This document shows, piece by piece, positions 1 through 16,559 of a stretch of 34,799 nt of DNA (position 1 is the stretch's first letter; the number at the start of each line of letters is the position of its first letter). Position numbers and translations under genes: made by a program. The DNA comes from a virus (lineage: Duplodnaviria; Caudoviricetes). The stretch spans positions 1 to 34,799 of IMG/VR virus record IMGVR_UViG_3300030095_001539; one strand, given 5' to 3'. Under the pieces are notes generated by a model that worked only from the letters and a program-made list of their open reading frames with translations, made no database searches and was not told the DNA's origin.

Positions 1-3000
1 TAAAAACTTAGGTCTACCCTTTTCATTTATAGTACTAGCATCAAATCCTAATATTTTTGCTACTTCATTTTTACTTCTAACTGTAGATATTTCTTTTAAT
101 TCTTCTATTAATTTTTTAGAAAATAATAAATCAGGTCTTGTTTGGGTTTTTCTAGCTGACGTAGCGGTAGTTCTGTCAGTTTCCCCTCTATTAACTCTAC
201 TCTCTGGTAAAAAGTCTTTAAACATTTTCTTACCAAACGCTTCGGCTAGTTTACCTTTTCTATTGCTAACAGTAGATGGTTTTTCTTTTGTAAAGAAATC
301 TACAGTAGCATCTGCACCAGGGTTTAATATGTCATAAAGCATAACACCTTGAGCTTCGTTTTCTACAAAAGCTCTACCTGAGTCTCTATACTTTCTTATA
401 TCAGCTTGAGTTGTTAGACGTCTATTAGGTTTAGTAAACATTCTAGGTTTACCTTGCTTCATTAAACCTTTATCTAGCTCTATAAGATATTTTAAATCTA
501 AATCTCTTATGTTGTTATAATTTTCTCTTACGAAGGTTTTATAGTCTTGACCTTTTAATACATTGTCTTTAATCCAGTTCTTAAGTTCAGCTCCAGCTAA
601 TTGATCTACTCTTGTTCTATATTTAGGATCACTAACAGGTGGTAATTTACTTACTATAGGTTCTGATATTTCTTTAAATGATTTAACTTCTTCTTGAGTT
701 AAACCTTTTTCATTACCTCTTTTTATATTTCTTCTAAATGTAGACTTAGGTTGTTCTTTAACTTCTCTATCTACCTCAGCTATAATATCTGTTGAAGTAT
801 CTTCAATGTCAAATGTTTGACCTTCACTAGTAGGCTTATCTATACTACGAGCATCAGAATCTACTCTAGTAGCATAATCTTTTTTAACATCTAATAAAGC
901 TTTCTGAGCAATACCACCTAAACCTCTTTGATCTGCTTTACCATATAAATAACTAAACAAACTTCTTCTATTTCCATCTACTACAGGTTTAAAATTATTT
1001 AAAGCTCTAAGCTGTAAATTTTCTTTTATCTTTCTATTAACCTCTTCTTTAACCTCAGAGTCTAATCCTTGTAAATTATTATCTCTATTTATTAATTGAT
1101 TTATATAGTTGTTAAATTGAGAATTATTTTCTATGTTTTCAAAAGCGTCTATAGCTGCTTCACTGTTTTTAAAATCTTCATTAGTGACTAAGTCTTCTGT
1201 AATGTTTTGATCAAAAGAATTAGACATAGATCTAGTATCAACACTTATAGGTTTAGAAGCAACCATTTTAACAGGTTGTTTAGCAGGTTCTTTTATTGGT
1301 ACAACTCTAGTAGTTTTAGATGTAGAAAGAGTAGGTTGTTCTTTTATATTATCTTCTGCAAGAGATTTCAATTCTTCTTGAGCTAAAACTTCACCTTTAG
1401 TTCTTAGATCTTGATCAATGTTAACCTCTCCTTTTACAGCTCTTTTTTGAGCTTTAGTTACGTTACCTTCTTTTAAGTTGTCAGCATAATCATTTAATAC
1501 TTCTAATATATTGTTTTCGTTAATATCTAGTTTCATACCTAGATTTTGATAGAGTCTTCTAATTCCTCTCTTTAGCTGTCTAGAAACAGAGTTATTTGTA
1601 TCAAAAAGACCCCTTTCTCTTAACTGAGTATAGTAAGGCATAACCTCTTGCATCACTGCGTTACCATCATAGTTTTCGTCTTCTCTATATTTATCTAATT
1701 GCCTATCTAATACTGCTGCTGCTTTTGGATTTTGCTTTCGCATTTCGTTCATAACCTTATCAGCAAGCGCGTAAACTATATTTTTATTTTCTAATTTTGA
1801 AAAAGCAATGTCAGTAAATAAATGAGTCCCCTCGTGAATATCAACTCCTTCTGCTGCGTTTTGTGATAATAATATTACTCCTTTTGAAGGTATATAACTA
1901 CCTTCGTTTCTAAACTCTCCGTTTTCGTCTACTAATTGATCTACGTCTATACCATATTCATCTGCTATAGACTGAGCTTCTGCTGGTGAAAATACTCTTA
2001 CTGCAGTTTGCTTAGGATCAAAATCTATCTTATTAGCTTCTACTTGCTCTTGTACTTCTTCCTCTGTAAGATTTGGATTTTCATCTCTTATTACTTTTTC
2101 TATATCTTTATTATCTAGATTTACTTTTTCTTCTGTGCTTATCACAAGAGCTTCTTCTAGCGATGATACAGTCTTATCTTTATCTACTTTAGCGTTGTTA
2201 CTATCACCAGAAACATCAGCCATTTCGTTATTTATAGCTTCTATCTGTTTATCTATTCTACCAGTAGAACCTTTAGCTAAATTTTTCTTTTTATTTTCTA
2301 ATGCTTTTTTACGTTGAAGCAGAGCTGCTATTTGCATCTGAGCTCTACCATTCAAACCGTCGTCTATTTCATTATAAAGATTATAAGTTTCATTTGCGTC
2401 TTGAATTTTTTGTTTTTTATCAGCGTCACTAAGTGTATTATCAGAAGATATTTTACTTATTTCATTTTGCAAAGCATCTGCATCTCTAGCCGTATTAGCA
2501 TAAAACTCATATAGCTTATCTGTTTGCTGTCTTTCTTGAAATGTAGTATTTTTTTCGTAATCACTTAGTATAGCTTCGCTTGGGCTTGAAGCCATAGTAA
2601 AAGCAGTACCACCAGCGCCTGATAGAAAAGACACTTGCATCATATGGTTTAATTGCTTTTTAAATTCAGGACTGTCAAAATCTGGTATATCAAAATTTAT
2701 ATCATCACCAGTGGAGTTTTGAAACCATTCATCTATTTGTATAGCACTGTAAAACTGAGTAGTTTCTTCTATTGTTTCTAATAAACCTGCAGTTGTAAAT
2801 TTTTTACCACCTCTAATTACTTTAGCAGCACTATCACCTAAGTACTTATTAACAGCTATTTGAACTTCTCTAGCAGTTACATTACCATTAGTTAATTTTC
2901 TTAGTACATGATTAGTTATATTATTAACCATGTCTGTTGATTTTTTACCTGGTATTTTACCACTTAAAATCTTACCAGATAAATGAGACAAAGCACCTTC

Positions 3001-5733
3001 TACAGCTGCTTGAGTGTAAGCATATAGCATTTGTCTAGACTTTGGATATGACTCTTCGTATCTTTTCATAGCGTCTTTTCTGCTAACGCCATTTTCCATT
3101 AATTCTTTTACATACTCTTTTTGTCTGTTTTGATTTGCAACATTACTTTGAGACATGCTACTTAAAAAGAAACCAGCACCTAACCCACCTAGTGGAGCAC
3201 CCATAGCAGAGGCTGCCATTTGAGTAAATGCAACTATAGTTCCACCTACTAAGCTGTCTGCAAATTTTTGAGAATATTTTTCATCATTTCCTATACCTAC
3301 TAGCTTATCAACTATTGCTTTTTTAGTTGACTCCATAGTAGCTTCTTGTGATTTAAAAGTAGCTAAATTAGCGTTATATTCTCCTTCAGATATTAAACCC
3401 ATTGAATTACCCACGTTGTTTATTCCTCTAGCAAAATCACGCATTATATCATTAAAACCAGCTTGAGTATCTACAAATTGAGTAGCAAAAACATCGTATA
3501 CTTCTGTAAATGGATTACCAGAAAATTCTTGATTTTGTTTTCTAGCAACTCTGTCGTTATTTTTATATCTTAACACAGCTTTTAAACCTTCTAATGTTTC
3601 GTAGTTGTTTAAATATGATTCTATATTGAAAGATATTCTACCTGTCTCAACTTCTAAGTCTTTATTTTTCTGTATTAAAACATCTATTTGTTCTTTTTCT
3701 TTTTCATAAAGATCAGTATAGTCATCAATTAAACCGTTGACATTATCTAATCTTTTTTCTTCCTGCTTGTCTTCCCACTTTTGATACTTTTTTACTAAAG
3801 CGTCTGCATCATCTGGATTTTCAGTAACAGCTATTTTTAGTTCTTCTCTTTTAGATGTTACATTATCTACATAAGCCTTGTTTATATCTTCTATCTCGCT
3901 TTTAGTAGTTTCTAGCTTGTTAGTAACGTTTTTAGCAAGGCTTTCACTTTCTGCGTTATTTTCTTTATACTTATCTATAATCTCTTCTCCTCTTTTTTGC
4001 TCATCTTGTATTTTATTTACTAAGCCTTTTTCTTTATTCTCTATCTCTCTATTTTGTTGTTTAATTGCTTTATCACTTCCTTCATAATATCTTGGTAATG
4101 CTCCTTCTCCATCATATGTATATTCAGCGGCGTTGTCTTTAACAAACTTCATATAATTAGCTATGTCTTCAGGAGTTTCTTCACTTTGAAATATATTTAT
4201 ATCTTTTTTACCCAGTGTCAAACTTGAAGATAATCCTTCTCTCTGCATTGCTTTGTTGAAAGCGTTTCTTTGTTGCGATCCACTTTTTAAATAATCTTTT
4301 AAAGGCTCTAAACCGTTTGCTTCTAGAGTTGCATTATAATCTATATCTCCATTTTCTTCAAATACAGGGTTTTTATAAGTTATAACTTCTTTACCATCTA
4401 CTATAGTTCCTAAACCGTGGTTTAAATAATTATTATTTAATTTAGTTGCTATATCTCTAGGGTTTTCACTAGATAAAAACCTAGCTCCATCATAGACCAT
4501 TTTATCACTAAAAGGATTCCAAACTTGATGAAAATCATTTTCTCTACCTTTTATCTCAAACTCACCACTATCGTTGTCAAACTTGTAGTATTTAGTTCCA
4601 GAGTTTGGCAGTACATTTTGAATATTAGGGATTTCTTTTTCTTCTCCTATATTTTCTGTGTTTCTGTTTAAATAGTCTCTATTAGAAGCTCTTAAAGCGT
4701 TTTGATTAACTAGATTATCATATCTCCTTATCTCTTTCTCTTTTTCTTGCTGTAGCTTTTCTATTTCTTTTTCGTCTGTTGCATCTTTTATTTTACTATT
4801 TAAATCTTTTAATTTGCTTAAATGACCTTCTTCATCTATGTCTAATAAAGATAAATCTTGAGCTTGACTAGCAGTAACTTCAACACCAGGCAGTATGTTG
4901 TCTTTTTGAGTAATTACCCCAGCATCTTTATATATATAAGCATTTAGTTCTTTATCTTTGATAGCCACTGGTTTTCCTTCAAAAAGAATAGGATTACCAT
5001 CTGCATCTGCACCTGTTTGATATACTGGTATGTAAAAATTACCTTGATCTCTAAGAACACTTCCTTTTATAACTTCATCTTCTATTTTAAATACATCTTC
5101 GTCAACAAAATCTTTAGATGTTTTATCAAGCTTTTTTAATTTTACAAGATTTTTAGAAACATCTAATTCACCTTCGCCTTTTAAATCTTTTTCTTTAAAT
5201 AACGATATATCAATCTCACCTGTATTTTTATAGTGGTCATAAGCATCTTTTTCTGATCTAAGTTGGCCTCTAGATGGATTGTCGAACTCTGCTTTCTTTC
5301 GCTCTTCAAAAGCTGTATAGTCAAAAGGTTTTACTTGTTGCTGAGTGTTTTTGTCTATATCAAAAGTTACTTTAGCTTCTTTAAACTTCTCACCATCAAT
5401 ATCTATCTCTTCTAAAATATCTATTTCTTCACCTTTTGGTATGCCTACTTGATTTTTAGATGCAACATATTTTTTAGGTGGATCAGAAATTTCAGGTTTT
5501 TGTTTTAGCTGTTCAGTGTCTTCTTTTGGTAAAACCAAAGAAATATTTTCCTGCTTGGATTCCGTACTGTCCGTAGGACTTGCCACTACAGGTGCAGCAT
5601 CCGTTGCAGTGGCCTGAGGCTTTTCCACCTCTGTAGGTTTGTTGTCAATATCCCATTGTTTAACTAATTCTATAGTTTGTTCTTTAGTCTTACCTTGGTC
5701 TAGCATAGACTGAGCATACTCTTTTCTAGTCAT
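1..5733 (-). CDS. Giant virion cargo/ejection polyvalent protein (>1911 aa, 3' end truncated by window edge) with hydrophobic segment, HExxH zincin motif and sigma-region-2-like segment
   Basis: Absent from the ORF track because no stop is reached. ATG at 5733 gives MTRKEYAQSMLDQGKTKEQ. Every segment I translated is open in the same frame, including positions 1-60 (AKILGFDASTINEKGRPKFL). Gly/Ala hydrophobic stretch TIVAFTQMAASAMGAPLGGLGAGFFLSS at about 3150-3240; HEGTH at 1822-1836. Lies after tail and ejection genes, as in crAss-like phages. Confidence 0.85.
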   Translation of the reverse strand, partial: MTRKEYAQSMLDQGKTKEQTIELVKQWDIDNKPTEVEKPQATATDAAPVVASPTDSTESKQENISLVLPKEDTEQLKQKPEISDPPKKYVASKNQVGIPKGEEIDILEEIDIDGEKFKEAKVTFDIDKNTQQQVKPFDYTAFEERKKAEFDNPSRGQLRSEKDAYDHYKNTGEIDISLFKEKDLKGEGELDVSKNLVKLKKLDKTSKDFVDEDVFKIEDEVIKGSVLRDQGNFYIPVYQTGADADGNPILFEGKPVAIKDKELNAYIYKDAGVITQKDNILPGVEVTASQAQDLSLLDIDEEGHLSKLKDLNSKIKDATDEKEIEKLQQEKEKEIRRYDNLVNQNALRASNRDYLNRNTENIGEEKEIPNIQNVLPNSGTKYYKFDNDSGEFEIKGRENDFHQVWNPFSDKMVYDGARFLSSENPRDIATKLNNNYLNHGLGTIVDGKEVITYKNPVFEENGDIDYNATLEANGLEPLKDYLKSGSQQRNAFNKAMQREGLSSSLTLGKKDINIFQSEETPEDIANYMKFVKDNAAEYTYDGEGALPRYYEGSDKAIKQQNREIENKEKGLVNKIQDEQKRGEEIIDKYKENNAESESLAKNVTNKLETTKSEIEDINKAYVDNVTSKREELKIAVTENPDDADALVKKYQKWEDKQEEKRLDNVNGLIDDYTDLYEKEKEQIDVLIQKNKDLEVETGRISFNIESYLNNYETLEGLKAVLRYKNNDRVARKQNQEFSGNPFTEVYDVFATQFVDTQAGFNDIMRDFARGINNVGNSMGLISEGEYNANLATFKSQEATMESTKKAIVDKLVGIGNDEKYSQKFADSLVGGTIVAFTQMAASAMGAPLGGLGAGFFLSSMSQSNVANQNRQKEYVKELMENGVSRKDAMKRYEESYPKSRQMLYAYTQAAVEGALSHLSGKILSGKIPGKKSTDMVNNITNHVLRKLTNGNVTAREVQIAVNKYLGDSAAKVIRGGKKFTTAGLLETIEETTQFYSAIQIDEWFQNSTGDDINFDIPDFDSPEFKKQLNHMMQVSFLSGAGGTAFTMASSPSEAILSDYEKNTTFQERQQTDKLYEFYANTARDADALQNEISKISSDNTLSDADKKQKIQDANETYNLYNEIDDGLNGRAQMQIAALLQRKKALENKKKNLAKGSTGRIDKQIEAINNEMADVSGDSNNAKVDKDKTVSSLEEALVISTEEKVNLDNKDIEKVIRDENPNLTEEEVQEQVEANKIDFDPKQTAVRVFSPAEAQSIADEYGIDVDQLVDENGEFRNEGSYIPSKGVILLSQNAAEGVDIHEGTHLFTDIAFSKLENKNIVYALADKVMNEMRKQNPKAAAVLDRQLDKYREDENYDGNAVMQEVMPYYTQLRERGLFDTNNSVSRQLKRGIRRLYQNLGMKLDINENNILEVLNDYADNLKEGNVTKAQKRAVKGEVNIDQDLRTKGEVLAQEELKSLAEDNIKEQPTLSTSKTTRVVPIKEPAKQPVKMVASKPISVDTRSMSNSFDQNITEDLVTNEDFKNSEAAIDAFENIENNSQFNNYINQLINRDNNLQGLDSEVKEEVNRKIKENLQLRALNNFKPVVDGNRRSLFSYLYGKADQRGLGGIAQKALLDVKKDYATRVDSDARSIDKPTSEGQTFDIEDTSTDIIAEVDREVKEQPKSTFRRNIKRGNEKGLTQEEVKSFKEISEPIVSKLPPVSDPKYRTRVDQLAGAELKNWIKDNVLKGQDYKTFVRENYNNIRDLDLKYLIELDKGLMKQGKPRMFTKPNRRLTTQADIRKYRDSGRAFVENEAQGVMLYDILNPGADATVDFFTKEKPSTVSNRKGKLAEAFGKKMFKDFLPESRVNRGETDRTTATSARKTQTRPDLLFSKKLIEELKEISTVRSKNEVAKILGFDASTINEKGRPKFL
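5513..5626 (-). other. Candidate programmed -1 frameshift cassette (G_GAA_AAG, 6-nt spacer, 9-bp stem-loop) and 35-codon transframe tail
   Basis: GTG GAA AAG at 5628-5620; spacer CCTCAG; stem GCCACTGCA (5613-5605) pairs with TGTAGTGGC (5590-5582). The -1 frame reads ASGHCNGCCTCSGKSYGQYGIQAGKYFFGFTKRRH and stops at TGA 5515-5513. Confidence 0.55.
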
Positions 5734-5740
5734 AATTTAA

Positions 5741-7627
5741 TTATTTTGTAAGATTGTTAACTAAGTCTTCTGCTGATTCTTCTTCCTCTTCATCAAACAT
5801 ATCTATTCTATTTTTCCAAGTATTATCATACTTTTTTGGATCTAAATCTTTATATATGTCTCTTTTAGCTTGTTTAATTTTTTCATTAAAAGCAACTGGA
5901 TCTTCTTGCATTAATTTTTCAATTTCTTCTTTTTTCTCTTTCCATAAATCACCATGCTCTGCTTCATCTCTAGCTTCTCTTAATGTTAAATCTCCATTAG
6001 CTAATAACATCAAATCTAAAGTGCTCATGCTACTATTAAACTCATAATCTGCAAGCTGTTGTCTTATTTGTTTAGGATATTCTGAAGGAACTTTACTCAT
6101 GTATTCTTCTTCAAATATTATTTGAGCACCTTCTCTAGTTAAATCTCCATTGTCATCTCTATACTTGTCGTATTTTTTATTTGCATATTTAGGATCGGTA
6201 AAACCAAAATCTTGTAGCCCGCCACCAGTTCCTGATCCAGACTTGCTTTCATAATCAAATATTTTAGAAGCTGTATTGTATACAAAATCATCTTTCTCTT
6301 TTTCTTTTTTACTTTCTATATTTATGTTCCCCTCTTCAGTTTCTCCTTCAACTTGTAAATCTTCAGGTAATTTTTCTTCTTCAACTTCTAAATTTTTAGC
6401 ACTCTCTGCGATTTGTTTGTTGACGTCTTCTGTAGGATCATCCAATGCTATTTGCATTGAAGCAGCTCCCGCTTCTAGTGATTGATTAGCTAAAAAATCT
6501 AACGCAGGTTTATAATACTCATCATAAAAAGCTTGATAAAGCTCTTTATCTTCTTTAGTAGCGTTTTCTCTAGTAGCATTAGCTATTATCTCATCTGATG
6601 ATAAACCGTTCCAAGCATCAGGGTCGTCGCCTGTAGGCCATTGATTTTTAACTAAACCAGCTTCATACATTTGATCTTCCCAAATACTTTCAGCTATATT
6701 TCCATCTCCTTGTAATAAGCCTCTAAAGCTACCACCTGTTGCTTTTTCTTTAGGTTTTGAAGGATCATCCCCCATTATACTATTTTTATAATCCACCTGC
6801 TGCTGAGGTGTCATACTATAAGTATCGTTAGCGCCTTTTGTTATAAATGTTGGGTTATAAACACCTTCGTCATTTTTGTTTTTAACAATATCGCCGTAAA
6901 ATCCTATAGTTGTTTCTTCAGTTGGTATTGCATATTTTAAATAATCTTCACCTCTGTCTTGAGATCTATTAAATTCAGTTATATTAAGAGATGTATCACT
7001 TTTAGTGTCATAAAGTATTATATTATTACCTTCTCTTTTAAACTCTATATCTTCAGCCTCACTTCCACCACCTGTTATTTTTCTTATTATTTGCAATTGA
7101 CTAGATGGAGCTCCAGCGTTACTTAATTTACCACCACTGTTAAGATCTGCTGTAGAAGCTTCTTTAATTGCTGAGTTAAAAGCCAACATATTAGCAACAC
7201 CTTTCCCATACTCATCAATCATATTTTCTATATTTGCTAAATCTTGCATGCCTAAAGAAGGGTCTTTCATGTTCTTCATATTGTTTTTAATACCATAATA
7301 GTCGTCTATTATACCATTCATAAAAACATCTGCTTTTTTATCAGTTCCTTCATATCCAGTTTCATAATCTGCACTACCTACTTTTTTATATAATTTTTGA
7401 GTTGCATTAGCATAATCTTTGTTTAGTTCAGCTAAACCATCTGCTTTAGGTGCTATGGCTTGAGTGGCAAAAGTACTTGCTATATTAGTCAAAGCAGATA
7501 AATTTTGACTAGTTCTAGCTTGCTGGGTAGCTTCTCTTTGAGAACTTCTTTTTAGCGATTGATCTAGTAGAGTTTGATTCAACTCTAAAGCACCGTCTTT
7601 CATTTGTTTTGGTTGTCTATAACTCAT
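5741..7627 (-). CDS. Internal virion/ejection protein with C-terminal GH108-like (lysozyme-fold) domain
   Basis: 628 aa, acidic and helical. C-terminal IFDYES...DFGFT...DLTREGAQIIFEEEY...PKQIRQQLADYEFNS...TWKNRI follows the GH108 / PG-binding pattern. Position is within the cargo gene block. Confidence 0.6.
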   Translation of the reverse strand: MSYRQPKQMKDGALELNQTLLDQSLKRSSQREATQQARTSQNLSALTNIASTFATQAIAPKADGLAELNKDYANATQKLYKKVGSADYETGYEGTDKKADVFMNGIIDDYYGIKNNMKNMKDPSLGMQDLANIENMIDEYGKGVANMLAFNSAIKEASTADLNSGGKLSNAGAPSSQLQIIRKITGGGSEAEDIEFKREGNNIILYDTKSDTSLNITEFNRSQDRGEDYLKYAIPTEETTIGFYGDIVKNKNDEGVYNPTFITKGANDTYSMTPQQQVDYKNSIMGDDPSKPKEKATGGSFRGLLQGDGNIAESIWEDQMYEAGLVKNQWPTGDDPDAWNGLSSDEIIANATRENATKEDKELYQAFYDEYYKPALDFLANQSLEAGAASMQIALDDPTEDVNKQIAESAKNLEVEEEKLPEDLQVEGETEEGNINIESKKEKEKDDFVYNTASKIFDYESKSGSGTGGGLQDFGFTDPKYANKKYDKYRDDNGDLTREGAQIIFEEEYMSKVPSEYPKQIRQQLADYEFNSSMSTLDLMLLANGDLTLREARDEAEHGDLWKEKKEEIEKLMQEDPVAFNEKIKQAKRDIYKDLDPKKYDNTWKNRIDMFDEEEEESAEDLVNNLTK

Positions 7628-7638
7628 TGTATATATAT

Positions 7639-8205
7639 TTAAGCCATTATGCTGTTAGTGTAGCCAGTTTGAATAGCGTTTAAGTTGTCTAAAGTTCTTT
7701 GTTCGGTGTTATCCAATTGAGTAGCCGCCCTATCTATATCTGCATTTTGCCTGTTTTCAGTAGTATTGAACTTGAACTTTTCACCTTCCGCTATTTGAGT
7801 CTGCAATTGTTGTGCTCCTTGTGCAGCTAATTTTTGATTATTTGCCTCTTGTTGCTCTAGTGATGCTGCTATACTTTTTTTACTTTGCAATGCTGCTTGC
7901 GCTAATGCTGTAGCACCACCAGCACCACCACCTGTAGCTGCTATAGTATCTAGTGTGTTTGCTAAAGCTATATCTGTTTGTTCAGCTTGAAACTCAGCAG
8001 CTTGAGTAGCAACTCCTAGATTAGCCATTTGATTAGTCATACCTGCATATGGGTTTATAGCCGGTTGTCTATTCTTTAATAAATTATCTAAATGATCTTT
8101 TTTTGCTTTTATTAATTTTTTAGCTTGATCTCTAGCCTCATTGATTTTATTTGCTCTATTGGTTTCTTCTATTTCGAGAGCTTTATTATTATCTTTACAA
8201 CCCAT
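7639..8205 (-). CDS. Small internal virion (ejection) protein
   Basis: 188 aa, Gln/Ala-rich coiled-coil with a GGGAGGATALAQAAL segment; follows the GNAT-like gene as in podovirus ejection clusters. Confidence 0.6.
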   Translation of the reverse strand: MGCKDNNKALEIEETNRANKINEARDQAKKLIKAKKDHLDNLLKNRQPAINPYAGMTNQMANLGVATQAAEFQAEQTDIALANTLDTIAATGGGAGGATALAQAALQSKKSIAASLEQQEANNQKLAAQGAQQLQTQIAEGEKFKFNTTENRQNADIDRAATQLDNTEQRTLDNLNAIQTGYTNSIMA

Positions 8206-8633: not shown

Positions 8634-10301
8634 TTAATATGACGATACAACATACTTAGTTCCAGCTGACCAAAGTTCTTTAGCTCCGCCTAGATTTGTT
8701 GTTGCATCTGTTTCTATTGTTACTGTAGCAAAATATCCTTTAATACCAGATATTTGATTTCCAAAAATAATCTCACCAGCTCTAGCTACTGAATTAGATA
8801 TTAAGTTTGAAACATATCTGTTTTCTTTTCTATTGAAACCAGCTCTTAAAGGTTGTCCTGTAACGCTGTCTGTGTATAAGCCTTCATCATAACTTCTTAT
8901 AGAAATTAAAGTACTTGGATCTACATAGTTTTTGTCTTGATCTTGAATGTAATTTGAAGTACCCGTAGCTGGATTAGGATCAAATCCTGTAAAGCCAGAA
9001 ACAAATGAAGTAACTTCCCAACCATTACTACCCTCGTAAGAAGCGGTTTGAAAGTTTTTGACTATTGAGGACTGATCGTTAAATATGAAAGTAACATTAG
9101 AAGGTTTTCTTACTCCATAAAATAAGCCCCTACTACTAGATGTATCATCATAATGCTTGTATAAAGTAGAGTTTTGTACACTATAAAAGTTATTTAAAAC
9201 ACTAAAAATAAAATTTGGTTTAAATGTAAAAAAGCTAACCCAACCATTTATAGACTCATCAAAAGCTAAAGTATCATAAGTGCTTTCAAGTGTTGATACT
9301 TGATTTGGTGTTTTTTGTATAGATAATACATAGTTTTTGTTATGTATGTCCCATCCACCTATTAACTTACCTCTAGTCTTATAATTAAAAGTTATTTCGC
9401 CTGATAAATTACTACTAAATAATTGTGAATAATATATAATAGTATTACTTCCTGATATAGTTACATATTTTATATGACCAGGATTTTCATATATACTCAT
9501 CCCAGCCGTAATATTTTGACCTGATGTTATACTACTTGTTAATATTGAAACTTTTGTAGTGCTAGTTTGGCCAAAGCCATTTACAGTACCTTTAACTACT
9601 TGGTTAGTAAAGTTACTGTTAACATCAGATAAACTATCTCTAAAATAATCTTGCATGCCATACATGTTTATTTCAGTTAAACCATCATTAGACAGTCTCA
9701 TTATAGCATTTCTATTTTTATCTGCAAAATACTTCCTATAGTTATATATTGCAAATGATTCTGGATTTTTACTTATTCCATATTCTCCTTTATAAGGAAC
9801 AAACTGTCCTATTACAGCTTTACCTGCTTGAGTTTGTGTTCCACTTTCAGTTGTATATATAGTGTCTTTCTCTATTAAAGCTCTATGTATTTTATTTTCT
9901 TGAAAAACTATTAGATTAGTATCTTCAGCATAAGTTTTTTGTATTGAGCCGTGTGATGGATCTAAAGATTTAGTTATAGCATCACCTATTGAAAAAACAT
10001 TAGTGTCATTTACACCTGTTCTAGAGTTATAAATACCTGAATATATAAGTGTATTTATTCTTTTTTGTTGTAAAGGATATTGTTCATCTAAATAAGCCCT
10101 AACACCGTTGTCTGTAGCTGTGTTATTATAGCCACCCCTTATTCTAGCTTCTTCTACAAAGTAAGTATTAGTATTAGATGTCGTATTAGTATCTGTACCA
10201 TAAGCAACTCCTGGTGGCATAAAAATTCCCGCATTATTTTTTGTCTGTACTTTTCTTACAATATAAGAATTAAACCATTCTATCTCTAATGTTGCACTCA
10301 T
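8634..10301 (-). CDS. Tail stabilization/nozzle protein, C-terminal-type part (P22 gp10-like family of crAss-like phages)
   Basis: 555 aa, beta-rich; motifs EEARIRGGYN, LIYSGIYNSRTGVN, GEYGISKNPESFA, GWVSFFTF, GIKGYFATV. Confidence 0.75.
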   Translation of the reverse strand: MSATLEIEWFNSYIVRKVQTKNNAGIFMPPGVAYGTDTNTTSNTNTYFVEEARIRGGYNNTATDNGVRAYLDEQYPLQQKRINTLIYSGIYNSRTGVNDTNVFSIGDAITKSLDPSHGSIQKTYAEDTNLIVFQENKIHRALIEKDTIYTTESGTQTQAGKAVIGQFVPYKGEYGISKNPESFAIYNYRKYFADKNRNAIMRLSNDGLTEINMYGMQDYFRDSLSDVNSNFTNQVVKGTVNGFGQTSTTKVSILTSSITSGQNITAGMSIYENPGHIKYVTISGSNTIIYYSQLFSSNLSGEITFNYKTRGKLIGGWDIHNKNYVLSIQKTPNQVSTLESTYDTLAFDESINGWVSFFTFKPNFIFSVLNNFYSVQNSTLYKHYDDTSSSRGLFYGVRKPSNVTFIFNDQSSIVKNFQTASYEGSNGWEVTSFVSGFTGFDPNPATGTSNYIQDQDKNYVDPSTLISIRSYDEGLYTDSVTGQPLRAGFNRKENRYVSNLISNSVARAGEIIFGNQISGIKGYFATVTIETDATTNLGGAKELWSAGTKYVVSSY

Positions 10302-10315
10302 GTTTATTTTTTAAA

Positions 10316-13282
10316 TTATTCACTAACTGGGGTTACTGGTGGATCTGGAGCTACAGGTGAAGCGGTTGATCCTATTGCAACAGCGTTGTTTAAATCAGAT
10401 ATTAATCCAGATGTTGAAGTTTCCCAAAATATTTCTAACCTAGATTCTGCAGGTTTTATTTCAAAAATTCCTAAAGCAACATTTTTGTCTCCTGATTTTC
10501 CTATTATTTGACCATCTGGCATTGTTAATATTATAGCGGGAGGATCACTAGCCGCAGCATAAACACCTTCTGATTGTACTGGCGTTTTTCTAGTACCATT
10601 ACTATCTAGCTCTGCTAAGCCTATGTCTGTTATTTTGCCATATGCGTTTATTGACGCTGTTGTTGTGCCAAAATAAAATTGAGTTGGAACATATACAGTA
10701 CTTATTAAACTAGTAGTAGAGCCTACTCTAGGATATAGCTCAACGTCGCTAGTGCCAAATTGAGTTTGCTCAGGGCCTACGGCATTTAAATCAGCTGGAA
10801 TTTTATTAACATTGTCAGATATTAAACTTGTTACAAAACTATTTTGTGAAAATGTATACCCACCACTATCAGTAGTACCTCCGTCATTTGAAACTATAGC
10901 AGAAGATGTAGATATTGTAGAGATATTTCCTACATAAGCATTGTAATAATCTCCAGCTTGTTGCTTAACTACTATTTTATATGAATACCAACCTAGTTTA
11001 TTTTCATCTTTAAATATTGTAACATTATATGATGCTGTAGCTTGGTTTGTTATCTCATCAGCAATTGTTATTCTCGATGTAGTAGTGTTTACTGAAGTAA
11101 TACTAGTTATAACTCTACCTGCATCACCCGTAGGTACTTGAATAATGTCACCCACTTGATAATTTGATATTGTTCCTACTGTATACTGTGTTCCACTATT
11201 ATTAACGGTAAATGTACCTATTATAGTTGGCGCTTGATACAGTCCAGGATAACCTTCAGCATAACTAGCTGTAGAAGGTATTGCATTTCTCATTAATAAT
11301 CTTATAGCATCACCTTTCCAGTTCTGCGGGTTATTTGATAATTTAGATTTATATGGATGGTATATGGTTGAACCATCATAAACAGTTGTTCCACCATCTT
11401 GGCTTTGTTGGAAGTCAGTTATAGAAGATAAAATAACATCTGACTGTCTACCATATCTATCAGCTAATACTATACCTATTTGATAAGTTCTATTTTGCTT
11501 TACGGTATGTGTAGGGTATGATATACAAGAGTTATTATATATGTCTCCACTAGCAGCGGAAGTTGGATTAACGCTAGTTGCCTTTTGAAATATTTGAACG
11601 TTGTAATCTAAGTTTTCTGGTGGCGTGTGCTTATTTACAAAATTACCATAAACTATTCTATTGCCTACAGAACTTTGTGACAATGCTCTAATAGGAACCT
11701 TGTCGAAAACTCTAGTTGTTTCATTAGCAGGTAAAGTTCTAAAAGGTTTTCTTGATTGGTAGTTGTAAATAAAATTTTTAGTATCATTGTCACTACCGTC
11801 TGGATTTTTTGAAAAAACAGATGAATCTATAGTTTCTAAAACCTGTATAGCAAGTCCATCAGATTCTTTGTATAAAATATCTAATTCTATTACTTTTAAA
11901 TTAGGCTCAAGAGCACTCCAATTGTAAGGACTAGGTACGTTGAGTTGTATTGAATTTACAGAGTTTTCAAAAAACGGTAATATAGTGCTTGCCATTATTG
12001 CAGTTTCTCCAAACTCTTGTTTAGGTATTAATGTTCCTGCAGAATTAAAGTTTTCTACAGCTCTATCAGATATATATCCATCTTGAAAAGGTATAAAAAC
12101 AGGTTGAGTAAAAGGTGATATTAAAGAATATTCTCCATCTTCAAATTTAAATCTATAAGCAAATCTTGAAAATTTATCTTTTAAAAAATCATTATCACCA
12201 GGAAATGTGTTTATGTAATCTGGATTAGGCCAACTAAGTTCAGCTACAACTGCAGCAAAACCAGTTAGATTATTAGGTATACCATGAGCCCCGCTCAATT
12301 GAAGAGTTTCATAACCTCCAGCAGTGGTTATAGCTGTTACTGTTGGTAAGTTATTAGGGTCAGTGTAACCAATAGCGTTAAATCTCATTGTAGTTTTGCA
12401 TGTTGAACTAGCGTTTTGCAACTTACATGATGTAGTACTTACAAACGCGGTAGATCCTAGACCAACAACAATAATAGAAGGAGGCAAAAACTCATCATTA
12501 GCATTTTGAGCAGATTTTTCTATAAGTTGAATTGTTGACTCGTTTTTAGAACCAATAGTGGATGTGGTGGTAAATTGGTAAGGTGAAGTATATTTTACTG
12601 TTTGTACATAAGCAGCAGTTCCTGCAATATTCATATTAGCTCTACAATTGTCTCTAGTTAAAACAGTGGTAGTAGTATAAGTTGTGCCACTACCAGAAAC
12701 ACTACTTATAGATATATTATTATATAGCTTAATAGGTTCGTATGGATAATATTTCGCTACTGATATTTGATCTTCTGAGTTATAATGATCTTGAGAATCA
12801 ATAGCTTTATCTACATTTATTTTTCTTGGCTGATTACGATTATCTGTAAAAAACAATAAGTTTTCTATTAAATTTACGCCAAAAACTGGAGATGTTTTAG
12901 AAAAATTTAAAAACCTACCAGTAACTAAAGTATTAGTTGTGTTATTGGTTAAGTCTCTCATTATGATATAATGTAAACTATTATATGGCGCAACATTACT
13001 TAACATATCTAAAGAGGTATCTGTATAATCAGTGACAAAGAAGAAAGCTCTATTATTGCCATCGTCTTCTAAATAACCTATAACTTCTAATCCACTTTGA
13101 GACGAAGGTAAATTAGCTACTAAAGTATTACCTAAAACATTTTCTAAAGCACCAACATCATCTCCCTCTGATCTACTTATATTTACATTTTGAGCATTTC
13201 TATATTCTCCATTAGATAAAAGTCTATCGTCAAGATCTTTGTTCATCTTTGACTTAGTAAAAGTATTTTTTATTTCTGGCAT
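10316..13282 (-). CDS. Tail stabilization/nozzle protein, N-terminal-type part
   Basis: 988 aa; N-terminus MPEIKNTFTKSKMNKDLDDRLLSNGEYRNAQNV, plus LLFFTDNRNQPRKINV, RFAYRFKFEDGEYS and VKQNRTYQIGIVLADRYGRQS, characteristic of crAss-like tail proteins. Confidence 0.8.
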   Translation of the reverse strand: MPEIKNTFTKSKMNKDLDDRLLSNGEYRNAQNVNISRSEGDDVGALENVLGNTLVANLPSSQSGLEVIGYLEDDGNNRAFFFVTDYTDTSLDMLSNVAPYNSLHYIIMRDLTNNTTNTLVTGRFLNFSKTSPVFGVNLIENLLFFTDNRNQPRKINVDKAIDSQDHYNSEDQISVAKYYPYEPIKLYNNISISSVSGSGTTYTTTTVLTRDNCRANMNIAGTAAYVQTVKYTSPYQFTTTSTIGSKNESTIQLIEKSAQNANDEFLPPSIIVVGLGSTAFVSTTSCKLQNASSTCKTTMRFNAIGYTDPNNLPTVTAITTAGGYETLQLSGAHGIPNNLTGFAAVVAELSWPNPDYINTFPGDNDFLKDKFSRFAYRFKFEDGEYSLISPFTQPVFIPFQDGYISDRAVENFNSAGTLIPKQEFGETAIMASTILPFFENSVNSIQLNVPSPYNWSALEPNLKVIELDILYKESDGLAIQVLETIDSSVFSKNPDGSDNDTKNFIYNYQSRKPFRTLPANETTRVFDKVPIRALSQSSVGNRIVYGNFVNKHTPPENLDYNVQIFQKATSVNPTSAASGDIYNNSCISYPTHTVKQNRTYQIGIVLADRYGRQSDVILSSITDFQQSQDGGTTVYDGSTIYHPYKSKLSNNPQNWKGDAIRLLMRNAIPSTASYAEGYPGLYQAPTIIGTFTVNNSGTQYTVGTISNYQVGDIIQVPTGDAGRVITSITSVNTTTSRITIADEITNQATASYNVTIFKDENKLGWYSYKIVVKQQAGDYYNAYVGNISTISTSSAIVSNDGGTTDSGGYTFSQNSFVTSLISDNVNKIPADLNAVGPEQTQFGTSDVELYPRVGSTTSLISTVYVPTQFYFGTTTASINAYGKITDIGLAELDSNGTRKTPVQSEGVYAAASDPPAIILTMPDGQIIGKSGDKNVALGIFEIKPAESRLEIFWETSTSGLISDLNNAVAIGSTASPVAPDPPVTPVSE

Positions 13283-13284
13283 AA

Positions 13285-14439
13285 TCAGTGTTTAATCCAT
13301 TTAGATTTACCACGCATTACTTGAACTATTTCATCAAGTTTTATATTTGATAACCTTATTTTAGCATTTCTTAATTTTGCTGATCTTTCTCTTTGGTATC
13401 TTTGAACGATGTATTCTGGGATGTTTGTTTTTGTTGATAGTATAGAATGATTAATATGAGCATATAATGCGTCCTCGGCCATCTTAGGCACCTTAGAATC
13501 TATGTCATAGGCTAATCCATCTGAAATATATTCTAAAACTATAAGTTTATTAGCTAAATCACTAGAAAAAGTAAATTTACCTTCTCTTTCATTTATTTGA
13601 AACCAACCATTCATTTGTGAAACTTGTGGATCTAAACCATATCTTTGTCCATAAGTTAATTTCCACCAATCTCTACTATATACATTAACATCGTTTTCGT
13701 CAATATTTCCAGTTATATCTTTATCACTAGCTGTATTCCATTTTTCTTCTGTTAAAGATTGATCTGCTTGAATATTTTTACTAAAATTGTCTTGGATTGG
13801 GACTCCTGATTCATCTTGCAATGGTAAAGTAAAAGGTGAGGATGTTAGATTATTAACTGGATATATTATGTGTTGAACACCACTGCTGTCTATCCATGAA
13901 CATCTAACGTAGTTTACATAGTCTTGTGGTATTGGAACACCTAAACCAGGAGGTATTGTTAATTCTTGAGATTTAATACTTTTTAAAGTATCATAACTAA
14001 ACTCTTGTAAACCTCTTTTAGCGTGGAATATAACATCAGTTCTGCTAATTCTATTTATTAATTTATCTTCGCCAACGTAGGCTACTATAAAGTTGTTTAT
14101 AATATCGTTTAGACTAGTATACTCGTAACTACCGTAATTTCCCTCTATTGCAGGATTTTTTAACTGTATGTAAGTAGATCCAGTATATGGACCATTCCTA
14201 AGTGTTATTATATTACTAGATGGATTAGATACGTAAGATAAATTTTCTGCTTGAGCAACACCATTTATATATATAGTGTAATTAGAAGCAGATGAAACCA
14301 TACCGCCAGCACTGTCAAAAGCGCTAACAACATCAACATTAAAAGTACAATTAAAAGTTGGGTTTGATTCACCTGCTAAATTAGGAAATGTTTGTTGACC
14401 TGAATAGTATTGAGCGTTAGTTTCAGTTATTAGTCCCAT
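13285..14439 (-). CDS. Tail ring/tubular protein type B (long copy)
   Basis: 384 aa; SLNDIINNFIVAYVGEDKLI...DVIFHAKRGLQEFSYD...PKMAEDALYA...LRNAKIRLS; paralog of 15247-15834. Confidence 0.7.
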   Translation of the reverse strand: MGLITETNAQYYSGQQTFPNLAGESNPTFNCTFNVDVVSAFDSAGGMVSSASNYTIYINGVAQAENLSYVSNPSSNIITLRNGPYTGSTYIQLKNPAIEGNYGSYEYTSLNDIINNFIVAYVGEDKLINRISRTDVIFHAKRGLQEFSYDTLKSIKSQELTIPPGLGVPIPQDYVNYVRCSWIDSSGVQHIIYPVNNLTSSPFTLPLQDESGVPIQDNFSKNIQADQSLTEEKWNTASDKDITGNIDENDVNVYSRDWWKLTYGQRYGLDPQVSQMNGWFQINEREGKFTFSSDLANKLIVLEYISDGLAYDIDSKVPKMAEDALYAHINHSILSTKTNIPEYIVQRYQRERSAKLRNAKIRLSNIKLDEIVQVMRGKSKWIKH

Positions 14440-14463
14440 ATTTATTTTCTTTTAATATTAAAT

Positions 14464-15237
14464 TTATTTATCTGCAAGTTCTTGAGCTGCTGCTTGAACT
14501 ATTTGAGGATCTCTTATTACTACTCCAGCATATTTAAGTATTTCTAGTATAACTTCAGTCTGGTAGTTACTACTTATTTCAAAATCTACAGATCCAGTGG
14601 TAGGTATAATACCAGTGCCTGTGCTAGATGGTTGATACACATAGTTACCCAGAGTTGAGTTTACGCTATAAGCCCAAACAACATTTTTAGGTTTTCTTAT
14701 AAAACTTGCTTCTACGTTTGCTGTAATATTACTAGGTTTTATTGTTAATTCTTTATTCTCATATAGATATACAGGGTAGTTTGCAGTAGGCGCTGTTAAA
14801 TCTGATCTATCTATATTGTAAAAATAATCTCTTTGTAGTCTTTCTATTTCTACAGGTTTAGTAGATCCAAAAGTGACTGTTCCTAATCTATAAAAAGCAA
14901 ATTGATTAGATGCAGGAGCATCATCATAAACAACAGCTGTGTTTGTTAATAAATCTACAGTTGGTGTAGTAAACCGCGAAGAACTTTGGTATGTACATGC
15001 ACCTAAGCATTTAAATGTAGATAACTCATCATCAATATTTTCTATAGGATTACTATAGTCAAATTCATTTTGAGGTATTCTTAATTGCTTGTCTAAATCT
15101 TTAAAATAATTTTCAAATATATCTAACTGAACTTGAGTAGCTGCTTGATTAAACTCATATGGAGTTAAGTAACCACGCTGTTCTTTGTTAAGTATACTCA
15201 ACACCGTTGTGTACACTGTGTTTACGTTAATCGCCAT
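14464..15237 (-). CDS. Tail ring/adaptor protein type A
   Basis: 257 aa; MAINVNTVYTTVLSILNKEQRGYLTPYEFN...SVDFEI...ILKYAGVVIRD; paralog of 15840-16559. Confidence 0.7.
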   Translation of the reverse strand: MAINVNTVYTTVLSILNKEQRGYLTPYEFNQAATQVQLDIFENYFKDLDKQLRIPQNEFDYSNPIENIDDELSTFKCLGACTYQSSSRFTTPTVDLLTNTAVVYDDAPASNQFAFYRLGTVTFGSTKPVEIERLQRDYFYNIDRSDLTAPTANYPVYLYENKELTIKPSNITANVEASFIRKPKNVVWAYSVNSTLGNYVYQPSSTGTGIIPTTGSVDFEISSNYQTEVILEILKYAGVVIRDPQIVQAAAQELADK

Positions 15238-15246
15238 ATTATTGTT

Positions 15247-15834
15247 TTAATCGAAGTTAGTAAATACCAGTCTTGATTTAGCTCTTTCTAGTTTGTCAGT
15301 TTTTTCTATAAGTAATCTTTGTAATACGTCTGGTCTAGTTTTTTCTCTATTTGCAAGTATAGCATAAATCATACATGCGTATAAAGCTTGTTCCGCTAGC
15401 TTAGGTATAGCAGCAGATTCATCTGTAGTAAGTGCATTTGATAAATATGTCAACGTTGCACTACCAGCATCTCCATATTTAATTGTCTTAGCTGCATAGT
15501 CTATAAAAAACTCTCCACTGGTAAGAGCGGCTAATGTAGAAACCTCAACAAGTGGTGTAGTCGCACTAAAACCAGTGTTTATTGCTGATATTACAGCAAC
15601 AAAATCTGTTGGTAAAGCAATTGCACTTGAAGTTGTCACAGTAGTAGGTCCTTCTGTAAATTGACTTTTTATAGTTTCGTAAGCAAACTCTTGCAAACAT
15701 CTACGAGCATGAAATATAACTTCTGTTCTTATGGCATCTGGTATTAATCTACCAGGTCCAGTATAAGAAATTAAAAAGTTATTTATAATATCATTAAGCG
15801 ATATAAAAGCGTTTGATAAGGGTGTTGTTGCCAT
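15247..15834 (-). CDS. Tail ring/tubular protein type B (short copy)
   Basis: 195 aa; SLNDIINNFLISYTG...EVIFHARRCLQEFAYE...PKLAEQALYA...AKSRL matches 13285-14439. Confidence 0.7.
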   Translation of the reverse strand: MATTPLSNAFISLNDIINNFLISYTGPGRLIPDAIRTEVIFHARRCLQEFAYETIKSQFTEGPTTVTTSSAIALPTDFVAVISAINTGFSATTPLVEVSTLAALTSGEFFIDYAAKTIKYGDAGSATLTYLSNALTTDESAAIPKLAEQALYACMIYAILANREKTRPDVLQRLLIEKTDKLERAKSRLVFTNFD

Positions 15835-15839
15835 AATTT

Positions 15840-16559
15840 TTATTTTTGTCCGTCAATATCTATTTGTTGTTCTTTGCTATTTGCCAACTGTAAAGCTAGC
15901 TGATCCCTAGTCATAACACCTGCATAACCTAGTATTTTATCTACTAACATAGGCTCATCCGATTGATGTAACTCAAAATCTACAGAGCTTTGTGCGTTGT
16001 AAATATAATTACCAAGTTCTGTATCAATAGTGAAACCCCATTTAACGTCTGTTGGATATTTTAAAAAGTTTAACTGAATATCATTTGTTCCATTAACAAT
16101 GGTCGATGGGTATAGCTGTATAACATTGTTTTCATAAGTATATACAGGGTATCTAGTAGTTGGTGCGGTTAGTGGAGATTGATTAGTAGTATAAACCTCG
16201 TGTTTTTGTATTCTTTGAACTTCTCTACCTGCGCTAGATCCTGTTTCAAAATAAACAACATCACCTAGCTCTTGCACCGCTGTTGTTGGGGTTACAGTCC
16301 CAGTAGCAGATGTGCTAAGAGTTTCAACTCTTTTAAATATTTGTATCTTTTCGTCTAATAAAGCATATCTATCAGCGTATGCTAGACTCGTTTGAGGTTG
16401 TCTCAGTAACTGGTTTAGTTCATCAAAATACTCTATGAATATTTCTTGCTGTGCTTGTGTAGCAACTTTGTTGAATTCAGTAGGTGTTAGTACACCTCTT
16501 TTTTCTTGTTGCAATACTACAAGTACAGACTTATATACCTGATTTATGTTTATAGCCAT
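15840..16559 (-). CDS. Tail ring/adaptor protein type A (second copy)
   Basis: 239 aa; MAININQVYKSVLVVLQQEKRGVLTPTEFN...SVDFEL...ILGYAGVMTRD matches 14464-15237. Confidence 0.7.
   Translation of the reverse strand: MAININQVYKSVLVVLQQEKRGVLTPTEFNKVATQAQQEIFIEYFDELNQLLRQPQTSLAYADRYALLDEKIQIFKRVETLSTSATGTVTPTTAVQELGDVVYFETGSSAGREVQRIQKHEVYTTNQSPLTAPTTRYPVYTYENNVIQLYPSTIVNGTNDIQLNFLKYPTDVKWGFTIDTELGNYIYNAQSSVDFELHQSDEPMLVDKILGYAGVMTRDQLALQLANSKEQQIDIDGQK

Follow-up and report, generated by a model that had tools for sequence, protein, structure and literature searches.

Can the gene for a giant phage protein also encode a second, much shorter protein through a shift of the reading frame? This question was raised by the 5' end of a gene in the virus record IMGVR_UViG_3300030095_001539 (Duplodnaviria; Caudoviricetes), and the window analysed here was the whole of this 34.8-kilobase (kb) record, 34,799 nucleotides (nt) in length. 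The gene starts at position 5733 on the minus strand and runs off the window (1..5733, ending before position 1), with a zero-frame product of more than 1911 amino acids (aa). An initial annotation had proposed that a slippery site and a stem at codons 36-38 shift ribosomes into the -1 frame. Our results showed that the slip site, the stem and the open frame were real and conserved: over 200 related phage sequences retain a slippery site together with a predicted RNA pseudoknot. The best explanation as a whole is that the gene likely yields, by -1 recoding, both a giant cargo (ejection) protein and a 73-residue protein.

In the window, codons 36-38 of the giant gene read GTG GAA AAG and contained the heptamer G_GAA_AAG with A_AAG at the A site (5620..5626, minus strand, as for all features below). 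The heptamer was followed by a 6-nt spacer (5614..5619) and by stem 1 of 9 base pairs (bp), with the 5' arm at 5605..5613 and the 3' arm at 5582..5590, as the initial annotation had described. That annotation had also suggested a pseudoknot between a GGAT in the loop and a downstream GTCC, but the conserved stem 2 was a different one, in which the 3' part of the loop (5' arm, 5595..5599, read 5599-5595) paired with 5569-5565 (3' arm, 5565..5569), forming 5 bp here and 6 bp in the nearest relative, L127. Upstream of the slip site, the -1 frame was closed by a stop at 5645..5647; between this stop and the tail there was no start codon, and the 43 open codons of the frame contained no ATG, GTG or TTG. 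The 38 zero-frame codons (5620..5733), which form the N-terminal module (N-module) of the giant and of the short product alike, and 35 codons of the -1 frame together gave the 73 residues that had been claimed. The -1 tail of 35 aa plus stop occupied 5513..5620 (stop at 5515-5513) and ended with the conserved motif YGxxxG[RK][WY]FFG (5513..5566 with the stop), which was predicted to form an amphipathic beta-hairpin. A 5-bp hairpin at 5616-5631 held the slip site inside its loop. The local fold alone was modestly unusual (z of -2.09, with 5 of 200 shuffles equally good), and an Rfam scan of 5300-5900 gave no matches at E values up to 1, so no curated frameshift element fitted. The element stands above chance because it is conserved, not because of the window fold on its own.

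To collect relatives without bias towards the element, the neighbouring gene for a 188-aa, Ala-rich cargo-type protein (7639..8205) was used as the anchor, which gave 20 loci plus the best 80 of 583. The start of the giant was reached in 81 of these 100 loci, 72 of them non-redundant. Stems were chosen by RNA criteria only, as the best stem 5-7 nt past an AAA or TTT site within the first 130 codons. A strong stem (-9 kcal/mol or better) followed a slip-type site in 42 of the 72 giant-gene starts. The -1 frame was open for at least 25 codons at 35 of these 42 sites and the +1 frame at 7, compared with a background of 44 of 2135 downstream sites (2%) for the -1 frame, taken from 40 of the genes. 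Nearly all of the tails finished with the motif or a degenerate form of it.

A second set was obtained with a DNA pattern for YGxxxG[RK][WYC]FFG, by which the motif columns themselves are fixed; 120 viral loci were scanned, and the strict pattern was estimated to match ~460 viral and ~1600 metagenome stretches. In 117 of the 120 loci (in L032 probably by chance), the motif lay close to the start of a long open frame and was read in the -1 frame relative to it; in these 117 the next frame stayed open until the locus ended, and its ATG was mostly located 50-120 codons upstream. Among the 97 non-redundant loci kept, the -1 stretch contained no ATG, GTG or TTG in 94 and stopped 14-19 codons past the Tyr in 91. 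In 69 of the 97, a perfect heptamer was present in register, versus 17% of 852 control windows. The heptamers comprised A_AAA_AAA (24), G_GGA_AAG (21), A_AAA_AAG (9), G_GAT_TTT (8), A_AAT_TTT (7) and G_GAA_AAG (4); the slip sequence turned over between loci while the -1 tail kept YGxxxG[RK][WY]FFG. The three shortest -1 stretches had just four codons between the 5' stop and the Tyr, the run of adenines (A-run) included. A scan of metagenomes agreed with these results, with the motif in the -1 frame at 111 of 120 loci, an ATG in none of the 111 and a slip class assigned in 106.

Selection on the tail was examined in 19 disjoint close pairs, whose loci were anchored by a regular expression for the peptide and not picked by the DNA pattern. 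Substitutions at the three -1 codon positions numbered 40/30/75, and the changed codons were synonymous in 46 of 110 cases in the -1 frame versus 15 of 101 in the zero frame. These counts bear on the possibility that no recoding takes place and that the -1 motif is the shadow of a zero-frame linker, or of an RNA or DNA element with another job. The loose recurring pattern of the zero frame speaks for such a shadow, but the substitutions were synonymous in the -1 frame and not in the zero frame, the zero frame exchanged Ser with Leu and Glu with Val, Ala or Gly at motif columns, and several unrelated slip sequences occurred at a fixed distance from the stem, which together make this explanation highly improbable.

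The RNA structure was analysed in the 72 of the 97 pattern-derived loci that lacked a run of nine adenines (A9; A10 and A11 likewise), where 185 candidate sites were examined. The window also belongs to this class. A stem of at least 9 bp lay 5-7 nt after a candidate site in 41 of the 72 loci, versus 80 of 1275 control sites. The spacer was exactly 6 nt in 33 of 69 stem loci and 5-7 nt in 49. An alignment of 59 sequences was built from 56 of the 69 stem loci together with the window, L002 and L003; the other 13 were left out because the automatic pick had landed on another site or structure. In stem 1, 88.5% of the cells were paired, and changes on both sides of a pair numbered 94, compared with 27.8 in shuffled and 15-42 in slid controls. 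Stem 2, between the 3' part of the loop and downstream sequence, was strong in 50 of the 59, versus 36% with swapped partners and 30% when shuffled, and the connecting loop was 3 nt in 48. Compensations in stem 2 included GGATGC/GCATCC, GGGTGC/GCACCC, GGTTGC/GCAACC and GGATCC/GGATCC. Because the covarying stem 2 links the loop of stem 1 to downstream sequence, the structure was assigned as an H-type pseudoknot. The marks of a bacterial -1 signal were found together at these loci: a slip site in register, a covarying 3' structure 5-9 nt away, and an alternative frame that was startless and under selection.

The A-run loci made up 25 of the 97, with A9 in 5 and A10 in 20, mostly at most 20 nt from the Tyr and mostly with a duplicated N-module. 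Runs of A9 or longer occurred only 9 times elsewhere in 755 kb, yet ahead of the tail in these 25 loci. In the cultured phages phi38:1, Gundel_1, elemoF and the Manatee Spring phage, the run was A10 or A11 and the -1 frame encoded divergent aromatic tails, and every cultured relative read had a run of at least nine A or T, as is looked for in transcriptional slippage. Polymerase slippage is efficient on runs of nine, according to the accessible part of PMC5009743. Runs of A9-A11 probably replace the pseudoknot in a sister group, through slippage of either the polymerase or the ribosome. In the single contig L503, the hairpin was in frame with the start codon because of an A10 run, and the giant was in a different frame.

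The records of phi13:2, phi18:3, phi19:3, phi46:3 and Panino have an A9 run and a split giant (phi13:2 gp126/127, phi18:3 gp122/123, phi19:3 gp128/129 and phi46:3 gp119/120, L228-L231; Panino L222:31566-31747), which is annotated as a short open reading frame (ORF) followed by a giant starting late at TTG or GTG. The DNA contigs X1 and X4 of L232 read A10, which restores one frame, so the annotated split is likely a homopolymer miscall. A need of the giant itself for slippage in Pachyviridae was rejected for L232 on the same two contigs. L232-related RNA contigs from one study read A9 (X12, X13) or A10 (X14, X15); these represent majority forms only, and A11 was not seen among them. The A-run was the sole variable place in 20 kb of X1, X13, X14 and X15, despite A7, A8 and T8 runs. 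This split of the RNA fits polymerase slippage but could also reflect library stutter or a mixed stock, and A9 gives access to the other frame, so we treat the split as no more than a hint. The alternative-frame tail of Panino (L222:31700-31830) repeated G-x-W-F-[FI]-G twice, which suggests a three-stranded version of the hairpin.

Several observations weigh against the proposed -1 shift. Manual sorting of the 72 relatives in the unbiased set placed the element in 54 (two of them odd) and found none in 18, which shows that not every relative needs it; a rapidly built, incomplete tree of the neighbouring gene required about 10 gains or losses, which makes repeated loss probable. Out-of-register controls contained perfect heptamers in 31 and 32 of the 97 loci, counts that are high because A-runs score in every register. 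The alignment was taken from loci chosen beforehand for a stem, a choice that favours pairing but not compensation. The heptamer of the window is imperfect at the P site, and its stem 2 is weaker by one pair than that of the nearest relative. In L063/L169 (L169:7992), the tail was intact in the -1 frame with no slip site. Only nine open codons preceded the tail motif at this locus, possibly a relic, and in the single contig L412 the giant was stopped inside the hairpin region with the tail intact. With these points weighed, the sequence signals indicate that -1 shifting very probably takes place in the cell. Alignment of homologous 5' ends, one of the checks proposed in the initial annotation, recovered slip sites, stem covariation and the YG...FFG tail, and nothing at the sequence level contradicted the proposal, as homologues kept all three. 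The signals in the homologues also supported a short isoform that arises by a -1 shift and has its first 38 residues in common with the giant.

The conserved part of the short product was its terminal hairpin. AlphaFold2 was run with a 21-row alignment on P0007, a database protein in which an N-module of similar kind is joined to the tail, and gave helices at residues 3-12 and 17-35 and hairpin strands at 45-52 and 55-62 around a Gly-Arg turn, with a predicted local distance difference test score (pLDDT) of 93 for residues 51-60 and a predicted template modelling score of 0.29. In the register of this model, hairpin positions 0, 2, 4, 7, 9 and 11 were located on one hydrophobic face. Positions 2, 4 and 11, which are outside the search pattern, were hydrophobic in 98-99% of the 97 loci, compared with a background of 33%, and degenerate tails retained the hydrophobic alternation. 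Cross-strand pairs varied together, being G:G in most loci, C:C in L223 (1:10) and polar in the L197 type. No fold match was found for the short product or hairpin in the PDB or viral Foldseek sets and no family match was obtained; PHROG, Pfam, NCBIfam, PDB-sequence, Foldseek (PDB, viral) and ESM Atlas searches assigned neither the short product nor the giant. Of 120 genome matches, 110 resembled leucyl/phenylalanyl-tRNA transferase, a resemblance that was set aside as a coincidence of the Gly/aromatic hairpin.

The initial annotation had offered two roles for the short isoform, metal binding and membrane binding. The first would make it a Cys-rich metal-binding protein, in keeping with three positions at which 44, 45 and 49 of the 58 pseudoknot loci encode Cys and with the interchange of TGC and TGT. 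All three Cys codons, however, were located in the paired arms of the RNA, and the middle one was changed to Ser in 7 of the 58 where stem 2 covaries. Cys was absent from 24 of the 25 A-run loci and from 10 of the 69 stem loci, and there was no family match. The ligands for a metal were thus not conserved, and the metal-binding role is very unlikely; the cysteines are dispensable and largely by-products of the RNA structure, with some selection on them possible. Membrane binding is the better of the two options because the conserved part is the terminal hairpin. Against it, AlphaFold2 predicted two strands for the -1 tail alone at low confidence (mean pLDDT 58), the hydrophobic face of about three rungs is too short to cross a bilayer, and basic residues are frequent in this frame regardless (24% background).

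The same hairpin also bears on the idea that the shift serves chiefly to set the dosage of the giant, with the aromatic tail as a degradation tag or a protease decoy. Aromatic clusters can act as protease signals, the shift lies near the 5' end and truncates the product, the tail is C-terminal with its stop at the narrow distance from the Tyr given above, and losses were repeated. Dosage alone, however, needs no conserved 15-residue motif with alternating hydrophobics and a fixed turn, and we regard this idea as improbable.

The N-module, predicted to form two helices, was of several unrelated types, each of which went with a type of upstream cargo tail as judged by eye; the same pairing of classes was seen by eye in high-GC phages without the hairpin. 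In the window, the upstream gene encodes a 628-aa cargo-type protein (5741..7627), the C-terminal tail of which is the candidate partner of the N-module. Pairing by type was seen at 5741-5790 of the window and at loci L361-L389, and the pair of an A-x-x-L-I-x-K-Y tail with an IDAGEPE module recurred in the unrelated high-GC phages L371-L383. In the accessible part of PMC13434306, the giant of N4 is proposed to follow gp51 through binding of its N-terminal domain, and T7 is stated to pack its ejection proteins at 8:8:4. Because of the class pairing and these two precedents, we infer that the N-module may be a docking tag. A stand-alone gene fusing module and hairpin was also considered, as 29 called proteins had both in a single frame. 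It was rejected: all 10 clusters looked up had one member (9 on one contig, 1 on two), the fused proteins changed frame at differing places, and the fusion was absent from all 31 loci that are related to one of these proteins. These proteins were read as insertion-deletion artefacts or rare mutants.

These results can be combined into a mechanism for the likely -1 recoding. The slip site and the predicted H-type pseudoknot at codons 36-38 would shift some ribosomes to the -1 frame, where they would stop 35 codons on and release a 73-residue protein consisting of the N-module and the predicted amphipathic beta-hairpin. We tentatively propose that the tail of the upstream cargo protein is the docking site of the N-module and that the hairpin grips a membrane surface or leaflet. 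The short protein might then be an adaptor for the cargo complex, or its anchor, and occupy surplus docking sites, while the shift may additionally limit the amount of the giant. An alternative with the same recoding would make the short protein an assembly bridge comparable to lambda G/GT, with the N-module on the cargo complex and the hairpin added as strands to the portal, scaffold or ring during packaging, outside any membrane. The specific Gly/aromatic sequence and the co-varying cross-strand pairs fit such a bridge, as do the cargo segments of crAss001 that bind the portal and tail rings (PMC10172136, accessible part) and the lambda precedent (PMC5009743, accessible part). The hairpin, however, was kept across phages with structural proteins only ~27-50% alike and had no PDB or viral fold match, and the bridge is possible but somewhat doubtful. 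More speculative still than the adaptor or anchor role is the full picture of a fourth, unannotated ejection protein, in which a swappable docking tag and a membrane-gripping hairpin would fill surplus sites on the tunnel protein and anchor the channel, with frameshifting and polymerase slippage interchangeable across lineages and setting its dose against the giant.

The recoding works like that of dnaX and copA, with an early shift and a short form; what is new is the added, selected tail and the occurrence in a cargo gene. In the accessible part of PMC5009743, tau/gamma of Escherichia coli dnaX is described as arising from a -1 ribosomal shift on A_AAA_AAG with a 3' stem-loop, and dnaX of Thermus thermophilus as using polymerase slippage on a run of nine. 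As in dnaX, the zero frame gives the long product and the shift the short one, and both routes are apparently used here in separate branches (the pseudoknot class and the A9-A11 class). In dnaX, however, the shifted frame stops almost immediately, whereas here a selected tail of 20-45 residues is added, and the split is about 70 aa versus more than 1900 aa in a phage cargo gene. The -1 shift in E. coli copA yields a 70-aa product from an 834-aa gene (PMC5009743, same part), similarly freeing a small N-terminal module of a large protein early on; its short form is a putative copper chaperone, whereas here the new frame contributes a conserved hairpin and a metal-binding role lacks support. T7/T3 gene 10 and the capsid of Lactobacillus phage A2 also make two products from one virion gene by a -1 shift (PMC5009743, same part), but extend the C-terminus of the capsid protein.

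With lambda gpG/gpGT, the locus has in common a -1 shift in a phage morphogenesis gene and a shared domain joined to a frame-specific binding part. G_GGA_AAG, the slip site of lambda G/GT, was the commonest non-A heptamer here (21 of the 97). The lambda system belongs to long-tailed phages and makes a longer product by a shift near the 3' end, whereas here the shift in a cargo gene of podovirus type lies near the 5' end and truncates the product; by gene order and ORF geometry, the locus does not have the G/GT placement between the major tail and tape measure genes. In crAss001 (gp45-47), T7 (gp14-16) and N4 (gp50-52), too, the tail genes are followed by three ejection or cargo genes that increase in size. 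In the first 150 codons of crAss001 gp46, 47, 49 and 50 and of phi14:2 gp076-079, no such element was seen by eye, and no frameshift is mentioned in the accessible part of the crAss001 paper (PMC10172136). Literature listings contained no published description, with subscription papers and bioRxiv supplements outside reach, which agrees with the statement in the initial annotation that none was known for cargo genes.

The minus strand of the window encodes GroEL/GroES, an amidase, a holin, the terminase, the portal, a 494-aa structural protein, ring-like and muzzle-like genes and an acetyltransferase-like gene (a name taken from the annotation of a relative's record), followed by the genes of 188 aa, 628 aa and more than 1911 aa, the giant being the third of three cargo-type genes behind the muzzle-like genes. 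The 494-aa protein was 51% like that of the Manatee Spring podovirus, 45% like that of Maribacter phage Panino and 42% like that of Elemovirus, and the portal was 27-33% like those of Pervagoviridae and Pachyviridae phages. By sequence likeness, the window is a structural module of the Flavobacteria podovirus type. The GenBank record of phi18:3 notes detection of its counterpart of the giant in virions by mass spectrometry (MS), so the giant is probably a virion-packaged protein. From the gene content and the likeness of the 494-aa protein and the portal, we infer that the host is one of the Flavobacteria and that the last three genes have a cargo (ejection) function. L242, a contig within a Flavobacteriales metagenome-assembled genome, has the element, in agreement with this host group. 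A tie between the element and the upstream acetyltransferase-like gene was ruled out, the element being found with and without that gene. Searches of cultured phages with the element (blastn and tblastn) and with the 188-aa gene (tblastn) gave chance matches or none. The muzzle-like protein at 8634-13282 was divided between a gene of 988 aa and one of 555 aa, which match opposite ends of the same PHROG, and is a single gene in some cultured relatives, and the ring-type genes at 13285-16559 looked duplicated (phrog_13977 twice, phrog_14543 twice). The giant contained an HExxH metallopeptidase-like motif at ~1800-1840 and, at ~780-1110, a stretch that we take to be sigma-factor-like by resemblance; Pfam and the Atlas gave no backing for either reading. 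The first cargo genes of L012 and L016 had a C-terminal extension of ~70 aa, presumably like an intramolecular chaperone/peptidase S74 tail.

The finding suggests that a widespread group of phages has a conserved protein that is invisible to gene callers and to proteomics databases. It also suggests that the short ORF and truncated giant in four Pachyviridae records are a miscalled A-run, as shown for one. The exchanged slip sites provide a natural series of bacterial frameshift pseudoknots, and the cultured relatives (phi18:3, phi13:2, phi38:1, Elemovirus, Gundel_1 and Panino) make the hypothesis testable. For the biology of these podoviruses, what is at stake is the use of recoding in cargo or ejection genes, and with it how giant ejected proteins may be loaded, dosed and anchored.

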